Source: Patescibacteria group bacterium (lineage in GTDB: Bacteria; Patescibacteriota; Patescibacteriia; Patescibacteriales; JBAZCA01). Taken from it: a DNA stretch of 64,000 nucleotides. Below are positions 3,209-57,757 of the stretch, one piece after another (position 1 is the stretch's first letter; each line of letters starts with the position of its first letter). Made by a program: the position numbers and the translations under genes. The stretch lies in contig JBAZUL010000001.1 in assembly GCA_041661405.1 (NCBI GenBank), forward strand, positions 28,403 through 92,402, in the 5' to 3' direction. The notes beneath the pieces are model-generated. The model had not been told where the DNA came from. It saw only the letters and a program-made list of their open reading frames with translations, and made no database searches.

Positions 3209-4732
3209 TCACCCCTTATTTATTAGCCCAGCCAACCTCTCCCTGAGCCCCGGCCAAGTGCTGTAATATTCAAAACCGCTGCGGCTTCTAATTTTTTCGT
3301 AAACCATCATTTGCAATTCATCATCCTTGAAAACCAAACGTTCAACCGGATTATGCAGTTTACCTCCGGCAAACAGGCTGTAACGATCAATGTAGGAATC
3401 CAGTATTTCCCTTATATTTATACCCTGATTATACTTTGATAATTTCCATATAGCTTCTAAATATTTATTTTCCCATTGCTGTCCGGGAACCTTATTAATT
3501 TGACTGATTAAATTTTCCGGGATTGATCCGTAATAATCATTCTGCATTATTAGCGTAAGGGAGCGGCTCAGGAAATGGCAACGTTGGAAACTATAATCCT
3601 CGCGTTCCTCTAGTAAATCAGCCAATTTTGTCTTTAATTTTTTCGGCAGGGACAAAAAAGCCGGGCTTTTCCTAAGCTGTTCATAATTTTCCGCTTTATA
3701 AATGAGTCTTGATTCGTCATATTCATCAAAAAATTCGTCCAGCTGACTGGGCTTTAAACTTAATTTTTCATCAACTCTTTCCCTTGCAACTACTCTCTCA
3801 ACCAGTTCTTTGCTTATAAACTCCCCATAAAAATCCATAATTTTCATTAAACTTTTTTCAGTTACTATCCCTGCCTTTGCCAGCTCAAAAGCTATCGGTT
3901 CAGCTCTTGGGAGAGTGTAATCAAAATCATCCGCCCGCCCCTCCTCTTCGTTAAAATTTGCCCAAGTAACATCCGAAAAGGAGACCTGGACTTTTTTCGG
4001 ATCGTCAATATTGAAAAAAATATTCCAAGCGTGAGGATTGTCATTAGCCCTAAGGGGTGAGGTGGCGCTATAGTCAAAACCCATTTCATACAAACAATAT
4101 GAATTCTTTAGTGTCCCGGCGGGAGACTGGCAGGCTTTTAACGCGCTAAAAACTGTTTTTACGGTTGAAGCGAAAGTCCTGCAAACTCCGTTGCCAATCC
4201 AGTTTGGGTTATCCAAATTTTTCAGCCCCTGTTCCAATATCTCTATGGCCGTGCATTGATCCGAATAGGTGAGAAACTCCCTTTGATCCCCGACCATTTC
4301 TTTGGAAGCCTCATACGATTCAAACTCGTTATATTTAGTTAACTTTCTAACTATGGCTAACGATAACCCAAACAACTGTTTCGGCTCTAAAACGTCTAAT
4401 CTTGCTACGTTAAAATTCCGGGCGATATTTGCTCCTTCCCTCTTTAAAAAATCTTCCACAAACTTGTATATCTTTGCCTCCCACCCTTCTTCTTCAACCG
4501 TATTCTCAAAAACATAATTTTCTCTCGCGTTATGATCTCTCTCCTGCGCGATATACCTTTGATTCAAGATAGCCGCGATTGAATCCGGAATCGGTAATGT
4601 TTTTTCTGAACCTTGAGGATTAAAGCTGTCCCATTCTGAAAAAACAACTCTTGTGCTGTCTTTCAATTCTAAATCCAGTAACGGCTCCTTTTCTTTTTCC
4701 GATTGTCGCTCGCTTAAATTTTCAACCCCCAT
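3209..4732 (-). CDS. Transglutaminase-like cysteine peptidase domain protein
   Basis: 507 aa. GNGVCRTFA (Cys), NPHAWNIFF (His) and VSFSDVTW (Asp) match the Cys-His-Asp order and spacing of the transglutaminase-like core. No signal peptide seen. AT-rich. Confidence 0.55.
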   Translation of the reverse strand: MGVENLSERQSEKEKEPLLDLELKDSTRVVFSEWDSFNPQGSEKTLPIPDSIAAILNQRYIAQERDHNARENYVFENTVEEEGWEAKIYKFVEDFLKREGANIARNFNVARLDVLEPKQLFGLSLAIVRKLTKYNEFESYEASKEMVGDQREFLTYSDQCTAIEILEQGLKNLDNPNWIGNGVCRTFASTVKTVFSALKACQSPAGTLKNSYCLYEMGFDYSATSPLRANDNPHAWNIFFNIDDPKKVQVSFSDVTWANFNEEEGRADDFDYTLPRAEPIAFELAKAGIVTEKSLMKIMDFYGEFISKELVERVVARERVDEKLSLKPSQLDEFFDEYDESRLIYKAENYEQLRKSPAFLSLPKKLKTKLADLLEEREDYSFQRCHFLSRSLTLIMQNDYYGSIPENLISQINKVPGQQWENKYLEAIWKLSKYNQGINIREILDSYIDRYSLFAGGKLHNPVERLVFKDDELQMMVYEKIRSRSGFEYYSTWPGLRERLAGLINKG

Positions 4733-34857: not shown

Positions 34858-34917
34858 ACATTTAAGGCGCCCGTTTTAAGACGCCAGAAGCTATTTTTGT
34901 GGGTTTAAGAGGGCTCG

Positions 34918-34976
34918 CCCCGCACGCCTATCCCGCCCCGGCGGGACGGGATGCCTCGCTCACACGCTCGGTAAAC
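34918..34976 (-). repeat. Promoter-associated structured repeat, type 1, copy in reverse orientation (no promoter seen)
   Basis: The minus strand reads TTTACCGAGCGTGTGAGCGAGGCATCCCG-hairpin-..GCGTGCGGGG, matching the left arm of copies at 7892, 37838 and 40132. Confidence 0.6.
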
Positions 34977-34990
34977 CATGCGGACAATTG

Positions 34991-35059
34991 TGGGCGGCAT
35001 AGGATTCGAACCTATTACCTCGTCGATGTCAATCCCGAGGACTCGGGACTCTAACCAAC
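34991..35059 (-). pseudogene. tRNA-Val-like fragment X, 3' portion (T arm and acceptor 3' strand)
   Basis: The minus strand reads GTTGGTTAGAGTCCCGAGTCCTCGGGATTGACATCGACGAGGTAATAGGTTCGAATCCTATGCCGCCCA. The acceptor 3' strand is complementary to GGGCGGC at 36405-36411. No canonical anticodon stem can be drawn. Confidence 0.55.
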
Positions 35060-35129
35060 GTTTACGCATCATCTGAAGTTTTCATCCCGCTTAGTAAGAT
35101 GAATTTAATTATTCGTCCTCGATAACAAA

Positions 35130-35978
35130 TTAATCGTATTTAATATATAGTCCAACGCCAACTTCTTTTAAATTTGTTACTTTTGATAAAGCGATTTTTG
35201 AATCTAAATCAACGCAATGACAAGCATGTAATTTAGACGTTTTCAGTTCTTGGAAATAATTGAGAGTGCCTGAGAGTTGTTTTTCTGAGGGTTGCATTAA
35301 ATGAAAACCACCAATAACGTCTAAAACTTTTTCTTCACCACAAACCTTTTTGGCGTATTCAACAATATTACAGATACCTGAATGAGAGCAACCAGTTATG
35401 ATAATAAGACCCTCTTTACCTTTGTAAGCTAGTGCAGTGTCATCAAGCAAATAGTCAGGTTCCATCTTCCCATCAATATGAATTTCTCCAACAGGTGATT
35501 TGTTTTCAAAGTCATTGCTTCTTTCTATTTCACCAAGAAAAACAAGTTTATCTGTAAGCCAAAAAGGTTCTTTGTGTGATTCAATTTGAAAATGCTTATC
35601 TAATTTTGATTGCGGAATAGTACAACCTATCTCTTTTAGACCATCAGCTGACCTTGTTTCAAAAATCGCTGGGTGAGCAATTAGTTTAGGATCTTTGTGG
35701 GGGATAGACTCAATCTTTGCCTCAGTATATAGCTTTAAAAGCGGATCAAGCCCCCAAGTGTGATCCATATGTGCATGGGAGAGAACGATAAAATCGCTTT
35801 GTAGCAAATTTAAATTAAGTTTTTGCGCATTAATAATAAAGGCGTTGGAATAACCAACATCGAATAATATTTGCCTAGATTCATCTTCTATTAAATAAGA
35901 TACTCCCGGTTCACCAAGAAAGTATCTATCTATTAAAGTATTGTTGTCGATTAATACTGTTAGCTTCATAAATTTCAC
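35130..35978 (-). CDS. MBL-fold metallo-hydrolase (COG1237-like)
   Basis: 282 aa with HAHMDHTWG (HxHxDH) and later His/Asp/Cys ligand positions. AT-rich. Confidence 0.8.
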   Translation of the reverse strand: MKFMKLTVLIDNNTLIDRYFLGEPGVSYLIEDESRQILFDVGYSNAFIINAQKLNLNLLQSDFIVLSHAHMDHTWGLDPLLKLYTEAKIESIPHKDPKLIAHPAIFETRSADGLKEIGCTIPQSKLDKHFQIESHKEPFWLTDKLVFLGEIERSNDFENKSPVGEIHIDGKMEPDYLLDDTALAYKGKEGLIIITGCSHSGICNIVEYAKKVCGEEKVLDVIGGFHLMQPSEKQLSGTLNYFQELKTSKLHACHCVDLDSKIALSKVTNLKEVGVGLYIKYD

Positions 35979-36011
35979 TTAGAAAAATGGATATAATTTC
36001 GTATAACTGAA

Positions 36012-36260
36012 CTATATTCTGCAAAGATTTTTATAAAATAGTTTGCTTTTTTGCGCTTTCAAAAATTTTTCTCTTCTCATAGCATTTCCTCTATCTTTAA
36101 ATTTTTCTTCATAAACCTTAATCCATTCGCCATCATATTTTGCCGTATATGTTGATAAACCCGAATTGTGCTCAATCAGCCTCTTTTTAACATCATATGT
36201 TTGACCAATATAAAATTTGTCATGCTTTTTATTATGTATTAAATAGACATAATAATTCAT
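36012..36260 (-). CDS. Small GIY-YIG nuclease family protein
   Basis: 82 aa. YYVYLI...KFYIGQT...RLIEHN...GEW...R(E)KFLK matches the GIY-YIG core. The ATG (36260-36258) lies one nucleotide after the tRNA-Val discriminator base. Confidence 0.85.
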   Translation of the reverse strand: MNYYVYLIHNKKHDKFYIGQTYDVKKRLIEHNSGLSTYTAKYDGEWIKVYEEKFKDRGNAMRREKFLKAQKSKLFYKNLCRI

Positions 36261-36261
36261 G

Positions 36262-36335
36262 TGGGTTTAAGAGGGCTCGAACCTCTGACCTCCACGATGT
36301 CAACGTGGCGCTCTAACCAACTGAGCTATAAACCC
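36262..36335 (-). tRNA. tRNA-Val (anticodon GAC)
   Basis: Manual cloverleaf: GGGTTTA TA GCTC AGTTGGTTA GAGC G CCACG TTGACAT CGTGG AGGTC AGAGG TTCGAGC CCTCT TAAACCC A. 74 nt, no encoded CCA. Confidence 0.9.
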
Positions 36336-36355
36336 AAAAAAATATTTAATTTATT

Positions 36356-36411
36356 CCTCCACGATGTCAATCCCGAGGACTCGGGACTCTAACCAACTGA
36401 GCTAGCCGCCC
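36356..36411 (-). pseudogene. tRNA-Val-like fragment X, 5' portion with a palindrome in place of the anticodon-stem 5' strand
   Basis: GGGCGGC TA GCTC AGTTGGTTA GAG then the palindrome TCCCGAGTCCTCGGGA, then TTGACATCGTGGAGG. It shares a 36-nt repeat (36362-36397) with 35024-35059. Confidence 0.55.
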
Positions 36412-36432
36412 AATACGATTATAAACTCAATG

Positions 36433-36506
36433 TGCGCCCAGATGGACTTGAACCATCGACCCCGGCTTTATAAGAGCCGTGCTCTAACCAGCTGAGCTAT
36501 GGGCGC
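36433..36506 (-). tRNA. tRNA-Ile (anticodon UAU)
   Basis: Manual cloverleaf: GCGCCCA TA GCTC AGCTGGTTA GAGC A CGGCT CTTATAA AGCCG GGGTC GATGG TTCAAGT CCATC TGGGCGC A. 74 nt. Confidence 0.85.
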
Positions 36507-36520
36507 AATGTTTTATCTTT

Positions 36521-36583
36521 CTTTTTTCAGAGGCGTGCTCCCTGCCTGCCGGCAGGCAGGTAACCAGCTGAGCTATGGGCGCC
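36521..36583 (-). pseudogene. Partial duplicate of the tRNA-Ile 5' half interrupted by a 20-nt perfect palindrome
   Basis: GCGCCCATAGCTCAGCTGGTTA + CCTGCCTGCCGGCAGGCAGG + GAGCACGCCTCTGAAAAAAG. It has no T arm and no acceptor 3' strand. Confidence 0.6.
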
Positions 36584-36635
36584 ATATATCAAATCCACCT
36601 CCACAAACGAACTTATATTCAGGTTAACACTAATA

Positions 36636-37781
36636 TTATACCTTTTCAAGAATAACTTTCAATTTCTCTTCCAGCATCCCGATTATCCGCTTTTCGCCGT
36701 CAGCAAAGGGCTCGTTCAAATCAAACTTGACGAGAGTTTTTCCTCCGGCCGGATTGTATTCCGCCGCGAGTTCCATGGAATTAAGGTTCCTGGCGGCGTG
36801 CAAAAAGACCCGGGTTTTTCCTTCTTCATTCTCAAAAATCAGGGCAATGACTTTTGCGGCCGGAACGTTCGTTATCATCTCTTCTATCACTTCTTCAAGG
36901 TCGGCTTCAACCGATCCGGTTTTTAAAAAATCGCTTTGCCCGAGAACTGACCAGATAAGCCGGTCGTTTAACGAACTTTCCAGGCGGGCGAGCACCCGGC
37001 CCCAAAGTTTTAACACGTTAAAAGAACGGGAGCGGAAAAGCTGGTTAATAATTTCGTCCTTCCGGGCGCCGGAAGCTATCAGGTCCGAAGCCGTTTCCAG
37101 CACCCGCGGAGTGATGGTTCTGGATCTAAAATTCCTTGTGCCCGAAATTATGCCTGCCAAAAGGCAAGTGGCGATATCCTCGTCCATGAGACCCTCGCCG
37201 AGCGTTTTAAAAAACGGAAAAAGAATTTCCGCGAGCGAAACCGCCGTGAGCTCTATTAAGTTAACCTGGCCGAAACTCTCGTTGTCCGGGCCGTTATCAA
37301 TATTTATGAGCGGGGTCTTATAAAAAAAGTCCGGGTTGTTCTCAAAAATCCGTCCAAGCGATTCAAGATCCGGAGCGCCGACCGCGACAACGAGGTCATA
37401 CTTATATCCGCAGGCGCAGGAAGTAACTTCCCGGCCGGTAAAAACTCCTTCTTTGGGGGTGATGATAAAATCCAGCCGTCCGTCTTCAATTACGTATTTA
37501 ACCTGATCAACTTTGGTTTGGGAAATATCAAGCGATACGATTAAATTCTGCAAACCCTCAACCGCTTCTTTAATTTCCATAAAACCGGGCAAAAAACTCA
37601 GGTCTTTTCTGCCGACGGCACCCTCTATAATCAGGTCCGCGCTTTTGCCCATCTTTTTTAAATACAAAAAAAGAGCCAGGGCGTTAGCCGGAGCGTCTTT
37701 ATTATCATCCCGCGGGGCGACAATGAGAATATTTTCGGATTTTTTAATCTGTTCTTCGGCTTGCTTTCTTTCTGATAACAT
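36636..37781 (-). CDS. DHH/DHHA1 family (NrnA-like) protein with degenerate catalytic motifs
   Basis: 381 aa with an NrnA-like layout. The position expected for DHH reads DNG (LINIDNGPDNESFG), and motif I reads APRDDNKDAPANALAL. Confidence 0.6.
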   Translation of the reverse strand: MLSERKQAEEQIKKSENILIVAPRDDNKDAPANALALFLYLKKMGKSADLIIEGAVGRKDLSFLPGFMEIKEAVEGLQNLIVSLDISQTKVDQVKYVIEDGRLDFIITPKEGVFTGREVTSCACGYKYDLVVAVGAPDLESLGRIFENNPDFFYKTPLINIDNGPDNESFGQVNLIELTAVSLAEILFPFFKTLGEGLMDEDIATCLLAGIISGTRNFRSRTITPRVLETASDLIASGARKDEIINQLFRSRSFNVLKLWGRVLARLESSLNDRLIWSVLGQSDFLKTGSVEADLEEVIEEMITNVPAAKVIALIFENEEGKTRVFLHAARNLNSMELAAEYNPAGGKTLVKFDLNEPFADGEKRIIGMLEEKLKVILEKV

Positions 37782-37843: not shown

Positions 37844-37900
37844 ACGCCGAGCGTGTGAGCAAGGCGTCCCGCAGCCAAAGGCATGCGGGATCTCTGCGCA
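37838..37900 (+). repeat. Promoter-associated structured repeat, type 1, copy R4
   Basis: TGTCAAACGCCGAGCGTGTGAGCAAGGCGTCCCGCAGCCaaaGGCATGCGGGATCTCTGCGCA. The left terminus is the -35 of the promoter for the 36636..37781 gene. Confidence 0.7.
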
Positions 37901-40137: not shown

Positions 40138-40185
40138 TGCCGAGCGTGCGAGCGAGGCATCCCGCCGGCGAAGCTGGCGGGATCT
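40132..40185 (+). repeat. Promoter-associated structured repeat, type 1, copy R5
   Basis: TGTAAATGCCGAGCGTGCGAGCGAGGCATCCCGCCggcgaagctGGCGGGATCT. The left terminus is the -35 (TTTACA) of the RNHCP gene promoter. The right end lies 6 nt before tRNA-Val(CAC). Confidence 0.7.
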
Positions 40186-50639: not shown

Positions 50640-50665
50640 AATAGTCCCGAGTGCTCGGGACTATT
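50640..50665. repeat. GC palindrome AATAGTCCCGAG..CTCGGGACTATT
   Basis: 12-bp perfect arms just upstream of the tRNA-Arg/CAU pair. Same core (GTCCCGAG..CTCGGGAC) as the palindrome inside tRNA-like fragment X. Confidence 0.7.
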
Positions 50666-54061: not shown

Positions 54062-54117
54062 TTGACAAGTAATTTGCATGTGAGCAAATTATCCCGCAGC
54101 CGCAGGCGTGCGGGATC
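54062..54117 (+). repeat. Promoter-associated structured repeat, type 1, copy R6
   Basis: TTGACAAGTAATTTGCATGTGAGCAAATTATCCCGCAGCCgcaGGCGTGCGGGATCC. Confidence 0.6.
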
Positions 54118-57709: not shown

Positions 57710-57757
57710 CTTCCTGTGGGCTAGACCCTGCAAATGCGGGGAACCTCCACCTTCCTG
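57710..57757 (-). pseudogene. Partial duplicate of the tRNA-Leu 3' end with a GC hairpin replacing T loop/stem sequence
   Basis: The minus strand reads GTGGAGGTTC-CCCGCATTTGCAGGG-TCTAGCCCACAGGAAGG. The real tRNA-Leu end reads GTGGAGGTTCGAGTCCTCTCTCGCCCACAGGAAGG. Confidence 0.55.

Follow-up and report, generated by a model that had tools for sequence, protein, structure and literature searches.

A probable Ssn-like GIY-YIG nuclease gene and its hairpins inside a tRNA-Val gene: a likely copy of a recurrent Patescibacteria element with signs of mobility

In a 64,000-nt stretch of DNA from a Patescibacteria group bacterium (contig JBAZUL010000001.1, positions 28,403 to 92,402; this whole stretch is called the window in the following), the tRNA locus between a gene for a DHH protein and proB contains a gene for a small GIY-YIG nuclease that almost touches tRNA-Val(GAC) and is enclosed by two copies of a GC-rich hairpin. 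The locus is one copy of a recurrent Patescibacteria element made up of a Ssn-like nuclease gene and cognate hairpins inside a tRNA gene. For the whole package, a tRNA-embedded variant of the Ssn/hairpin module that bears signs of mobility, we estimate a probability of roughly 60%.

All tRNAs at the locus are encoded on the minus strand. The resident tRNA-Val(GAC) allele, termed X, is broken in its anticodon stem between positions 25 and 33, and at both broken ends 7 nt (CGCGTCG) have been exchanged for a 16-nt palindrome, TCCCGAG-NN-CTCGGGA. The two hairpins flank the nuclease gene on both sides (Table 1), and the two parts of X overlap by 36 nt, visible as an exact direct repeat (35024-35059 and 36362-36397) that extends to 42 nt at 95% identity. 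An earlier note on this DNA had attributed this repeat to a broken tRNA-Val-like gene, and rightly so: the two parts can be located, their acceptor strands (GGGCGGC and GCCGCCC) are complementary, and the intact form of X is a live tRNA-Val(GAC) at the same locus of the relative L083 (6309-6383; GGGCGGCTAGCTCACTTGGTTAGAGCGCGTCGTTGACATCGACGAGGTAATAGGTTCGAATCCTATGCCGCCCA). Enclosed by the two X hairpins are a different, intact tRNA-Val(GAC) (allele T, with three differences from X in the replaced arm), the 82-aa nuclease gene and a foreign gene for a metallo-β-lactamase (MBL)-fold protein; all DNA between the two hairpins is incoming. That X might itself be a functional tRNA, split or intron-containing, was ruled out, since its parts overlap and, once the hairpin is taken out, a 5' anticodon arm is missing.

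A search with the flanking DHH protein brought up relatives with 97%, 85% and 66% identity, among whose contigs are L079 (97%), L080 and L083. The gene order common to these relatives is clpP, RNHCP, uvrB, DHH, tRNA-Ile(UAU), tRNA-Val(GAC), proB, proA, proC, proS, and their DHH-proB gap measures 287-354 nt, without a nuclease or MBL gene. In L079, DHH, tRNA-Ile, tRNA-Val and proB follow one another with nothing in between. This closest relative carries the empty site for which the earlier note, reading the DNA as an insertion, had advised inspecting relatives; the insertion is recent and foreign. The window flanks are 93-95% identical to L079 right up to positions 36561 and 34902; between these limits, the window has about 1.66 kb (36560-34903) versus 165 bp in L079 (part of tRNA-Ile, the spacer and tRNA-Val). 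No co-conversion tract, which would appear as raised divergence, was detected in the flanks relative to L079, identity ranging from 88 to 100% per 150 nt with no trend toward the insertion. Three tRNA-Val(GAC) alleles occur at this one locus among close relatives, the acceptor of allele T differing from those of L079/L080 (GGACGCT) and L083 (GGGCGGC). The conserved gene shows a presence/absence polymorphism (empty in L079, L080 and L083) in which tRNA alleles were exchanged along with the cassette, and insertion into a resident tRNA-Val is nearly certain.

The AT-richness remarked on in the earlier note holds up in numbers, and the composition is foreign: GC content is 0.32 for 35060-36260 versus a window average of 0.45, and GC content at third codon positions is 0.24 in both open reading frames (ORFs) versus 0.46-0.59 in proB, proA, DHH, uvrB and clpP. 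The GIY-YIG and MBL content stands as well. The 279-aa MBL ORF matches PF00753 (E 2e-12) and belongs to the widespread TM1679/MJ0301-like MBL-fold family. Its closest homologs are 85-89% identical, the one named at that level coming from a Chitinispirillaceae metagenome-assembled genome (MAG), and more distant ones (62-77%) occur in Lentisphaeria, Deltaproteobacteria, Bacteroidetes and archaea, in unrelated genomic contexts; this implies that the gene was probably transferred between phyla in the recent past. A role as regular partner of the nuclease was ruled out, as an MBL gene accompanies the nuclease ORF in none of the other 75 loci described below and the homologs reside in unrelated contexts. 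The MBL gene is cargo. The protein also gave a weak Pfam match to Anti-Pycsar_Apyc1 and a weak PADLOC match to RTasMBL, both unconfirmed.

The nuclease gene recurs at tRNA genes in other genomes. A first protein search yielded four relatives with 60-64% identity from other Patescibacteria, all touching tRNA-Val, in a locus composed of cmk, rplS, tRNA-Leu(GAG), tRNA-Val(UAC) and tsaE; in the window, the corresponding locus (rplS, tRNA-Leu, tRNA-Val(UAC)) has no such occupant. A further 67 loci came from scans of species-representative genomes and of metagenomes and were surveyed with ARAGORN and ORF calls. In the following, relative loci are the 75 fetched loci with relatives of the window nuclease; labels of the form L006 stand for fetched loci and contigs in general. 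At 60 of the 75, ARAGORN placed an intact tRNA that touches the nuclease ORF. At no fewer than six further loci a tRNA-Asn was missed by ARAGORN, being cut by a contig end or carrying an intervening sequence after anticodon position 35. The occupied tRNAs are Val(UAC), Val(GAC), Ala(UGC), Asn(GUU), Lys(CUU) and Lys(UUU), plus one Thr(CGU) locus identified by the survey only, and almost all loci contain a hairpin-disrupted partial tRNA copy. Two arrangements are found. In type B (14 loci), the ATG lies -1 to 4 nt past an intact tRNA, usually 0-1 nt after the discriminator; in type A (46 loci), the tRNA starts between 23 nt before and 35 nt after the stop-codon end, the commonest offset being 10 nt before it, so that U8-A9-G10 of the tRNA serves as the stop codon. 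Tandem arrays, along with 'ghost' copies that have internal deletions, were seen in L006, L010, L011, L017, L027, L033, L051 and L059.

Several proposals of the earlier note gain from this survey. Small GIY-YIG genes abutting tRNAs, for which it had recommended a search, are present in dozens of other genomes, and its idea of a tRNA-linked, self-mobilising cassette fits with a tRNA joined to the ORF at such a large share of loci. It had also observed that in the window a single base separates the nuclease ATG (36260-36258) from the discriminator A (36262), which is correct, and had suggested expression via the tRNA transcript; because the ATG abuts the tRNA in 14 independent relative loci too, such expression would appear to be a family trait. 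The comparative evidence suggests that nuclease + hairpin modules move and target tRNA genes.

Individual loci offer further observations. L017 presents a tandem series of tRNA, nuclease, hairpin-tRNA and nuclease, and in L006, L010 and L011 two to three tandem units, each a hairpin-bearing 5' half with a 30-nt nuclease-gene remnant, precede the intact tRNA. In L018/L028 (3255-3340), the hairpin substitutes for the 5' anticodon arm of a full-length tRNA-Val, a gene that ARAGORN labels tRNA-???. In L031, L034, L050 and L073 (and L053), the tRNA-Asn downstream of the nuclease gene has an intervening sequence of ~190-260 nt after anticodon position 35, with an ORF containing Cys-rich motifs in the case of L053; here, one tRNA-Asn gene is occupied by two different elements.

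The link to Neisseria rests on both protein and hairpins. Chenal et al. (Nat Commun 2025; PMC11893778) described Ssn as a single-domain GIY-YIG protein of ~94 aa (CDD cd10448), whose genes as a rule have their own hairpin repeats alongside; in Neisseria, this repeat (NTS) is CGTCATTCCCGCGMAVGCGGGAATCYRG. Ssn binds the hairpin only in single-stranded DNA (ssDNA) and cleaves only ssDNA, a few nucleotides upstream of the hairpin; loop identity is irrelevant, and double-stranded DNA and RNA are not cut (PMC11893778). SsnA modulates transformation in Neisseria, and the NTS-ssnA-NTS layout was compared to insertion sequences (IS), with mobility hypothesised only (PMC11893778). Neither tRNA nor Patescibacteria is mentioned in that paper. 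As to the window protein, PF01541 spans residues 2-73 of the 82-aa nuclease, Pfam and NCBIfam yielding only the generic GIY-YIG assignment; no second domain was found by Pfam, NCBIfam or alignment, and the protein ends at residue 82. Residues Y6, Y17, R27, H31 and E64 do not vary among 14 sequences; they line up with the tyrosines of GIY and YIG and presumably correspond to the GIY-YIG catalytic set. In BLASTP, the protein is 30% identical (E 9e-9) to the N. gonorrhoeae SsnA ortholog (L096 298-582), and the family profile aligns with SsnA at 97.6% probability in hhalign (E 4e-12); conversely, SsnA as query matches only the nuclease ORF in the window. The most distant locus of the set, L023 (Moraniibacteriota), encodes a protein 54% identical to the 94-aa gonococcal protein flanked by NTS copies, and its gene is itself flanked on both sides by the NTS-like GTCATTCCTGCGAAGGCAGGAATC. 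Taken together, we consider it very probable that the window nuclease is Ssn-like.

By sequence, the closest solved structures are UPF0213 proteins (1ywl, 1zg2), then SLX1. The subfamily is large: a search with a 5-sequence alignment as query matched 885 of the clusters formed at 50% identity (E<=1e-10), with representatives mostly of 80-130 aa. No sign of a phage origin was obtained, with no tblastn match in 50,697 phage records and none in IMG/VR, and membership in a defence system was indicated by marginal PADLOC matches only. Outside Patescibacteria, a Saprospiraceae MAG (L022) encodes a 93-aa relative followed by two TCCCG-type hairpins, TCCCGTCGTACAACGGGA and TCCCGCACTTGCTGCGGGA (3240-3370); since the nearest tRNA there (tRNA-Asn) lies 415 nt upstream, tRNA fusion is not universal in the wider family.

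The hairpins, too, link the module to Ssn. The stem TCCCGAG of the window differs from the NTS stem TCCCGCG by one base, and the hairpin in the spacer at 34931-34946 (GCA-TCCCGCC...) is still nearer to NTS than the TCCCGAG hairpin. TCCCGA-N4-6-TCGGGA is present in the partial tRNA copy of every Val or Ala locus, where it takes the place of positions 26-32 in every copy that can be placed on the tRNA; a second site is the middle of the T loop, from position 58. Asn/Lys loci carry TCCGCCAGCTGGCGGA or close variants, with 3 nt of the D loop (usually 14-16) replaced in nearly all placeable copies. In a neighbour-joining tree, a Val/Ala clade stands apart from an Asn/Lys clade, hairpin type tracks protein clade, and arrangements A and B are intermixed within the Val/Ala clade. 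Stems are conserved and loops variable, with both loop orientations occurring in one locus (L010) and hairpins nested within hairpins in L050 and L059; the distance from the ORF to a hairpin is at most 50 nt in nearly all relatives examined. Toward the nuclease gene, tRNA homology next to the hairpin stops after 8-20 nt in nearly all copies; on the gene-distal side it usually reaches the tRNA end. The junction of the MBL cassette (35059/35060) and a fork in the assembly graph (35057, see below) fall within this same short gene-proximal interval. In the Neisseria locus, the cleavage-side flank of both NTS copies faces the gene, the same orientation as that of the putative cleavage side in the window. 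The idea that the hairpin is a palindromic fill-in of a break was ruled out, as its stem does not repeat the flank in inverted form and is kept from genome to genome.

Hairpins of the general type TCC...GGA occur 10 times in the 64-kb window versus 1.4 times in shuffles, only three of them matching the cognate type exactly; over the 9 kb shared with nuclease-free L079, that relative has one and the window five. Further copies are located at 37867-37890 and 54092-54115, as well as at 2725, 41439 and 45648 (e.g., TCCCGCAGCC...GCGGGA); those checked against ORF coordinates are intergenic, and L079, the 97% relative, lacks the one located between DHH and uvrB. A solo cognate hairpin at 50645-50660 (TCCCGAGTGCTCGGGA), with its stem prolonged to 11 bp via ATAG/CTAT and a DNA fold z of -8.5, resides in the leader of a tRNA-Arg(UCG)/tRNA-Met operon, 37 nt upstream of tRNA-Arg and just past a promoter-like TTGACT...TAATAT. 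Directly past tRNA-Leu(GAG), at 57714-57750 on the minus strand, a duplicate T arm and 3' end has its T loop replaced by the hairpin CCCGCATTTGCAGGG and reads GTGGAGGTTC-hairpin-TCTAGCCCACAGGAAG, with no nuclease gene at that locus. A ~45-nt repeat, CCGAGCGTG(Y)GAGCGAGGCATCCCG...GGCGGGAT, with a terminal NTS-like hairpin is found at 34930-34975, in the spacer ahead of a lone tRNA-Val 3' end, and at 40139-40182, just upstream of tRNA-Val(CAC); the hairpin of the latter copy also occurs in L079.

The choice of target might have to do with the stem itself. The mean Hamming distance of the stem of the Asn/Lys clade (clade N; TCCGCCA) to acceptor stems is 2.7 for Asn and 1-1.5 for Lys versus 3-6 for other tRNAs. 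This likeness, which the Val clade does not show, is suggestive only; the clade-N stem may mimic the acceptor stem of its target, which would explain target choice. By analogy with Ssn, which tolerates any loop, a whole tRNA gene in single-stranded form might be read by the nuclease as a hairpin, which would offer a way for a hairpin-free tRNA gene to become a target.

How such a module could be mobilised is a matter for tentative modelling, and to the mobilisation steps that follow we would give a little less than even odds. Like SsnA, the nuclease would bind its own hairpin in ssDNA exposed during replication, during transcription of a busy tRNA operon or upon DNA uptake, and would cut ~8-15 nt from the hairpin foot, on the gene-facing side. 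The breakpoints of tRNA homology all lie on the nuclease-gene side of the hairpin, nearly all of them at the distance proposed for the cut. Host recombination would then heal the cut ends, with the conserved tRNA segments beside the hairpins serving as homology arms, and it is via these arms that the module would gain access to the corresponding tRNA gene in a new genome. As the target tRNA is lost upon insertion, survival would be limited to copies that carry a replacement, namely a whole tRNA in the Val/Ala clade and the first 13 nt only in the Asn/Lys clade, whose insertions lie in the D loop. The hairpin would keep the redundant tRNA copy dead and at the same time interrupt a direct repeat that could delete the cassette. 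Expression would occur by read-through from the tRNA operon promoter. In type B, tRNA 3' processing would leave a near-leaderless nuclease mRNA; in type A, the stop codon lies within the next tRNA and would be removed by RNase P cleavage during tRNA 5' processing. Either way, the level of nuclease would be held low.

Several points weigh against this picture. The ssDNA specificity, the hairpin binding and the cut position are extrapolated from SsnA at 30% identity and would have to hold over that distance, and UPF0213 proteins reach sequence scores to the window protein similar to those of SsnA (UPF0213 E 1e-6 against PDB). To our knowledge, GIY-YIG nucleases form no covalent intermediate and cut-and-paste by the enzyme alone is impossible, for which reason every joining step would have to be host-mediated. 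A naive tRNA gene has no hairpin, so that the primary target in a naive genome is ambiguous. In L006, L013 and L014, the intact tRNA and the disrupted copy have the same anticodon-arm sequence. At the X junctions, the homology arms measure a mere 18 nt and 9 nt, and ordinary recombination between tRNA-Ile and proB could have brought in the entire block with no contribution from the nuclease.

The last point leads to the alternative that we regard as unlikely yet as the most serious one, namely a domesticated or passive module with a host function, for example in limiting or modulating recombination of incoming ssDNA at tRNA loci, the block having arrived by homologous recombination via conserved tRNAs and neighbouring genes. 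The role of SsnA in transformation would suit such a function, what is new compared with L079 stops at tRNA-Ile and at the tRNA-Val 3' end, as a recombination tract would, and hairpin-bearing tRNA relics occur in relatives without a nuclease gene at the locus. However, a passive history leaves the joining of the ORF to tRNA ends, exact to the nucleotide at many unrelated tRNA loci, hard to understand, as it does the tandem arrays with deleted 'ghost' copies and the foreign composition; destruction of the resident tRNA by an insertion that brings a replacement fits a selfish element better than a host function.

Quite unlikely, in our judgement, is a classical free-standing homing endonuclease that cuts the intact tRNA gene in duplex form, perhaps in the anticodon stem, with repair from the cassette allele and the hairpins as transmitted immunity substitutions. 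T4 SegB, the model for this scheme, is a larger multi-domain enzyme that acts on duplex DNA. In favour of homing one may cite that the hairpin always replaces the same 7 nt of tRNA-Val, that incoming allele T differs from X at three positions of just this arm, that empty and filled alleles coexist, and that weak homing-endonuclease matches were returned by PHROG and PADLOC; SegB itself is a homing enzyme of the GIY-YIG type whose gene and cleavage site both lie in a cluster of tRNA genes (PMC2330249). The window protein, with its 82 aa, lacks the DNA-binding domain of the characterised multi-domain GIY-YIG enzymes, and differs from those of the I-TevI/Seg type in having no joined domain to read a long duplex target. 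The parallel with homing drawn in the earlier note gives way to kinship with the hairpin-guided ssDNA nucleases of the Ssn group. Moreover, the intact tRNA of L006, L013 and L014 shares the arm of the disrupted copy and would be cut too, immunity does not account for T-loop hairpins in dead copies, nested hairpins or solo hairpins in tRNA leaders, and the hairpin sequence covaries with the protein clade and resembles the Ssn recognition hairpin.

An integrase-type islet at the tRNA-Val 3' end is already contradicted and hardly merits any weight. It had been suggested in the earlier note by the 20-mer TGTGGGTTTAAGAGGGCTCG, first written as the reverse complement of the tRNA 3' end, which occurs exactly twice (34898-34917 and 36260-36279; with up to 2 mismatches allowed, 100 shuffles still give an expectation of 0), can be lengthened to 25 nt at 92% identity and brackets AT-rich DNA in the manner of attL/attR. 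The description of the repeat is accurate: one copy, at 36260-36279, is the 3' end of an intact tRNA-Val(GAC) with 2 trailing bases (placed at 36261-36335 by ARAGORN and at 36262-36335 by Rfam, 72.3 bits). Its reading as insertion footprint is not, as the lone copy sits where L079 has the 3' end of its resident tRNA-Val. Likewise, the junctions with resident DNA do not lie at a tRNA 3' end but in the anticodon stem of X, each marked by the 16-nt palindrome, and the bracket encloses the 3' half of X and leaves the 5' half outside. L080 and L083 have a GC hairpin and a 3'-terminal tRNA-Val fragment before proB, neither with a nuclease gene; because these nuclease-free relatives hold equivalent relics, the lone 20-mer is an older relic of the same kind and not a boundary of the present insertion. 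The same architecture is found at Asn, Lys and Ala genes, with junctions within the tRNA body. Finally, as the earlier note had stated, no integrase is present: between 34860 and 36640, no integrase-like or recombinase ORF was found, and among ORFs of >=50 aa only the GIY-YIG and MBL ORFs matched a protein family.

A chimeric join through repeated tRNA sequence is just as improbable, since three independent contigs cover every junction of the window path (L001, 42260-35057; L002, 36314-35060; L003, 35196-27730), the path restores the conserved synteny from DHH to proB, and the repeats (20 and 36 nt) are far below k=141. What could be held in its favour is that the assembly graph of sample ERZ27249449 forks at 35057, 8 nt 5' of the hairpin foot, where one contig runs into unrelated genes. 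This 175-kb contig, k141_644275 (L001/L097), equals the window exactly up to 35057 and then continues with at least 10 kb of unrelated AT-rich genes: a GC-rich 120-aa ORF, HD_4, YbaK, SSF, Imm5-like, S11 peptidase, radical SAM and MnmA, none of which is present in the window and without return to proB within the 10 kb followed. At the fork, the window path reads AAACGTT followed by GGTTAGAG, and the contig AAACGTT followed by ATATGAAAT; the first bases past the fork (GTTATATGAAATAAC) resemble the left end of the MBL cassette (GTTATACGAAATTAT). The fork may reflect another cargo cassette that entered this hot spot, a duplicate copy or a chimera.

The remaining features of the locus (Table 1) are in line with repeated events at the same place. 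The tRNA operon promoter upstream of tRNA-Ile presumably drives the whole tRNA/GIY-YIG/MBL transcript. Fragment Y, in which collinearity with L079 ends at 36561, contains in its D loop a perfect 20-nt palindrome (36541-36560), and its AT-rich filler ends in ...AAGAAAGATAAAACATT immediately ahead of the intact tRNA-Ile. The same palindrome is found in tRNA copies adjoining GIY-YIG genes in L004, L007, L008, L012 and L059. Y resembles what a former type-A cassette would leave behind after loss of its nuclease gene. That the locus was rearranged more than once, as the earlier note had concluded, is borne out. At its other end, the nuclease gene has the stop codon TAG followed by TTCAGTT, and ATAGTTCAGTT matches tRNA positions 7-17 at 10/11 bases. 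Rfam, at gathering as well as permissive thresholds, scored only the two tRNAs, leaving X and Y unrecognised and indicating no intron or riboswitch. The TTGACA of the X anticodon loop together with the A/T spacer forms a candidate promoter-like site, TTGACA-18-AATATT (36370-36341); as a general promoter this combination is not proposed, being present in the window and unconvincing in Val(UAC) loci. The anticodon of the neighbouring tRNA-Ile is unusual, since most bacteria use a CAU gene whose product is modified by TilS; UAU is kept at the locus in the window, L079, L080 and L083.

Table 1. Feature map of the tRNA locus, from the operon promoter toward proB (positions in the window).
Feature	Position	Strand	Remarks
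Sigma-70-like promoter of tRNA operon, TTGAAA-16-TATAAT	36635-36662	-	11/12 matches; overlaps DHH gene end; region conserved in L079, L080, L083
Fragment Y: tRNA-Ile 5' part (positions 1-22), palindrome CCTGCCTGCCGGCAGGCAGG, decayed anticodon arm, AT-rich filler	36521-36585	-	
Intact tRNA-Ile(UAU)	36432-36506	-	ARAGORN and Rfam; 100% identical to L079
Upstream half of split X: positions 1-25, hairpin TCCCGAGTCCTCGGGA (36386-36371), anticodon loop, 3' arm of incoming type (CGTGG)	36349-36412	-	
A/T-only spacer, 13 nt	36336-36348	-	
Intact tRNA-Val(GAC), allele T, acceptor GGGTTTA/TAAACCC	36262-36335	-	In inserted segment; replaces split resident gene
82-aa single-domain GIY-YIG nuclease, Ssn-like	36012-36260	-	PF01541, E 9e-13
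MBL cassette, 945 nt, in D loop of downstream tRNA copy, GTT on both sides	35060-36004	-	ORF 35969-35130, 279 aa
Downstream half of split X: D-loop positions 15-25, hairpin TCCCGAGTCCTCGGGA (35048-35033), X-allele positions 33-76	34990-35059	-	Identical to 3' part of L083 tRNA-Val
GC-rich 72-nt spacer S with NTS-like hairpin TCCCGCC-GG-GGCGGGA (34931-34946)	34918-34989	-	
Lone 20-nt tRNA-Val 3' end (T loop to discriminator, +2 nt)	34898-34917	-	Followed by proB

Among known systems, Ssn/SsnA with its NTS (SRM) repeats is the closest. Common to both are a single-domain GIY-YIG protein of 80-95 aa with detectable homology, a gene flanked on both sides by a short GC-rich hairpin with conserved stem and variable loop, and a cleavage-side flank, putative in the window, that points toward the gene; the further TCC...GGA hairpins between genes of the window may correspond to the dispersed repeat copies of Ssn genomes. 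In contrast to Ssn, the hairpins of the window type are embedded in partial tRNA copies, the ORF begins or ends in direct fusion with a tRNA, the element brings its own substitute tRNA or tRNA 5' end, and the hosts are Patescibacteria; unlike the Ssn paper, which hypothesised an IS-like origin only, empty and filled alleles are documented here. T4 SegB is similar in that a GIY-YIG gene lies among tRNA genes (PMC2330249; PMC13096335), tandem arrays also being found in L006, L010 and L017; SegB is a site-specific endonuclease that cleaves recipient DNA, and the abstract of its report describes no hairpin repeats (PMC2330249). IS200/IS605 and REP/RAYT share a small nuclease gene between subterminal hairpins, scattered hairpin-only derivatives and, as predicted for the present nuclease, action on ssDNA, an analogy also drawn by the Ssn authors (PMC11893778); they differ by their HUH (Y1) transposase, whereas a GIY-YIG enzyme is the only nuclease at the present locus. 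Group I introns are reported from Patescibacteria tRNA genes at the site after anticodon position 35 (PMC13011429), in the same hosts and the same class of target gene. These introns lie within the tRNA and, according to that paper, would be spliced out as RNA, whereas the nuclease cassette is no intron and leaves or brings a complete tRNA beside it; neither GIY-YIG nor hairpins are mentioned in PMC13011429. In our literature searches, no account of a fusion between GIY-YIG and tRNA genes in Patescibacteria came up. A parallel in organelles is provided by free-standing GIY-YIG ORFs of fungal mitochondria (e.g., at Allomyces atp6), which bring a replacement gene end and displace the resident one: there as here, a mobile ORF is fused to the end of a conserved gene, the duplication is partial, the incoming copy is functional and the resident piece is a relic. 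The targets are protein-coding in that case, the enzymes are multi-domain homing endonucleases, and hairpins are absent.

A possible, clearly tentative generalisation is that these loci represent an unrecognised class of mobile elements that invade tRNA genes with a Ssn-type nuclease and its hairpin, use the universally conserved tRNA sequence as portable homology arms, kill the resident gene, leave the cell reliant on the tRNA or tRNA 5' end supplied with them, and are expressed parasitically via tRNA processing. Ssn was described only in 2025, with an IS-like origin no more than guessed; at the present loci, empty alleles can be set against filled ones, the junctions are precise and independent insertions number in the dozens, which makes the mobility of Ssn-hairpin modules directly testable. 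Each clade also provides a new nuclease-hairpin pair for ssDNA tools, as a possible application. Broken, hairpin-bearing tRNA copies and, in some cases, replaced alleles at Patescibacteria tRNA loci matter for tRNA annotation, for assembly and for the use of tRNAs as markers, and an ORF bounded by tRNA ends is a compact case of a selfish gene riding on tRNA processing.

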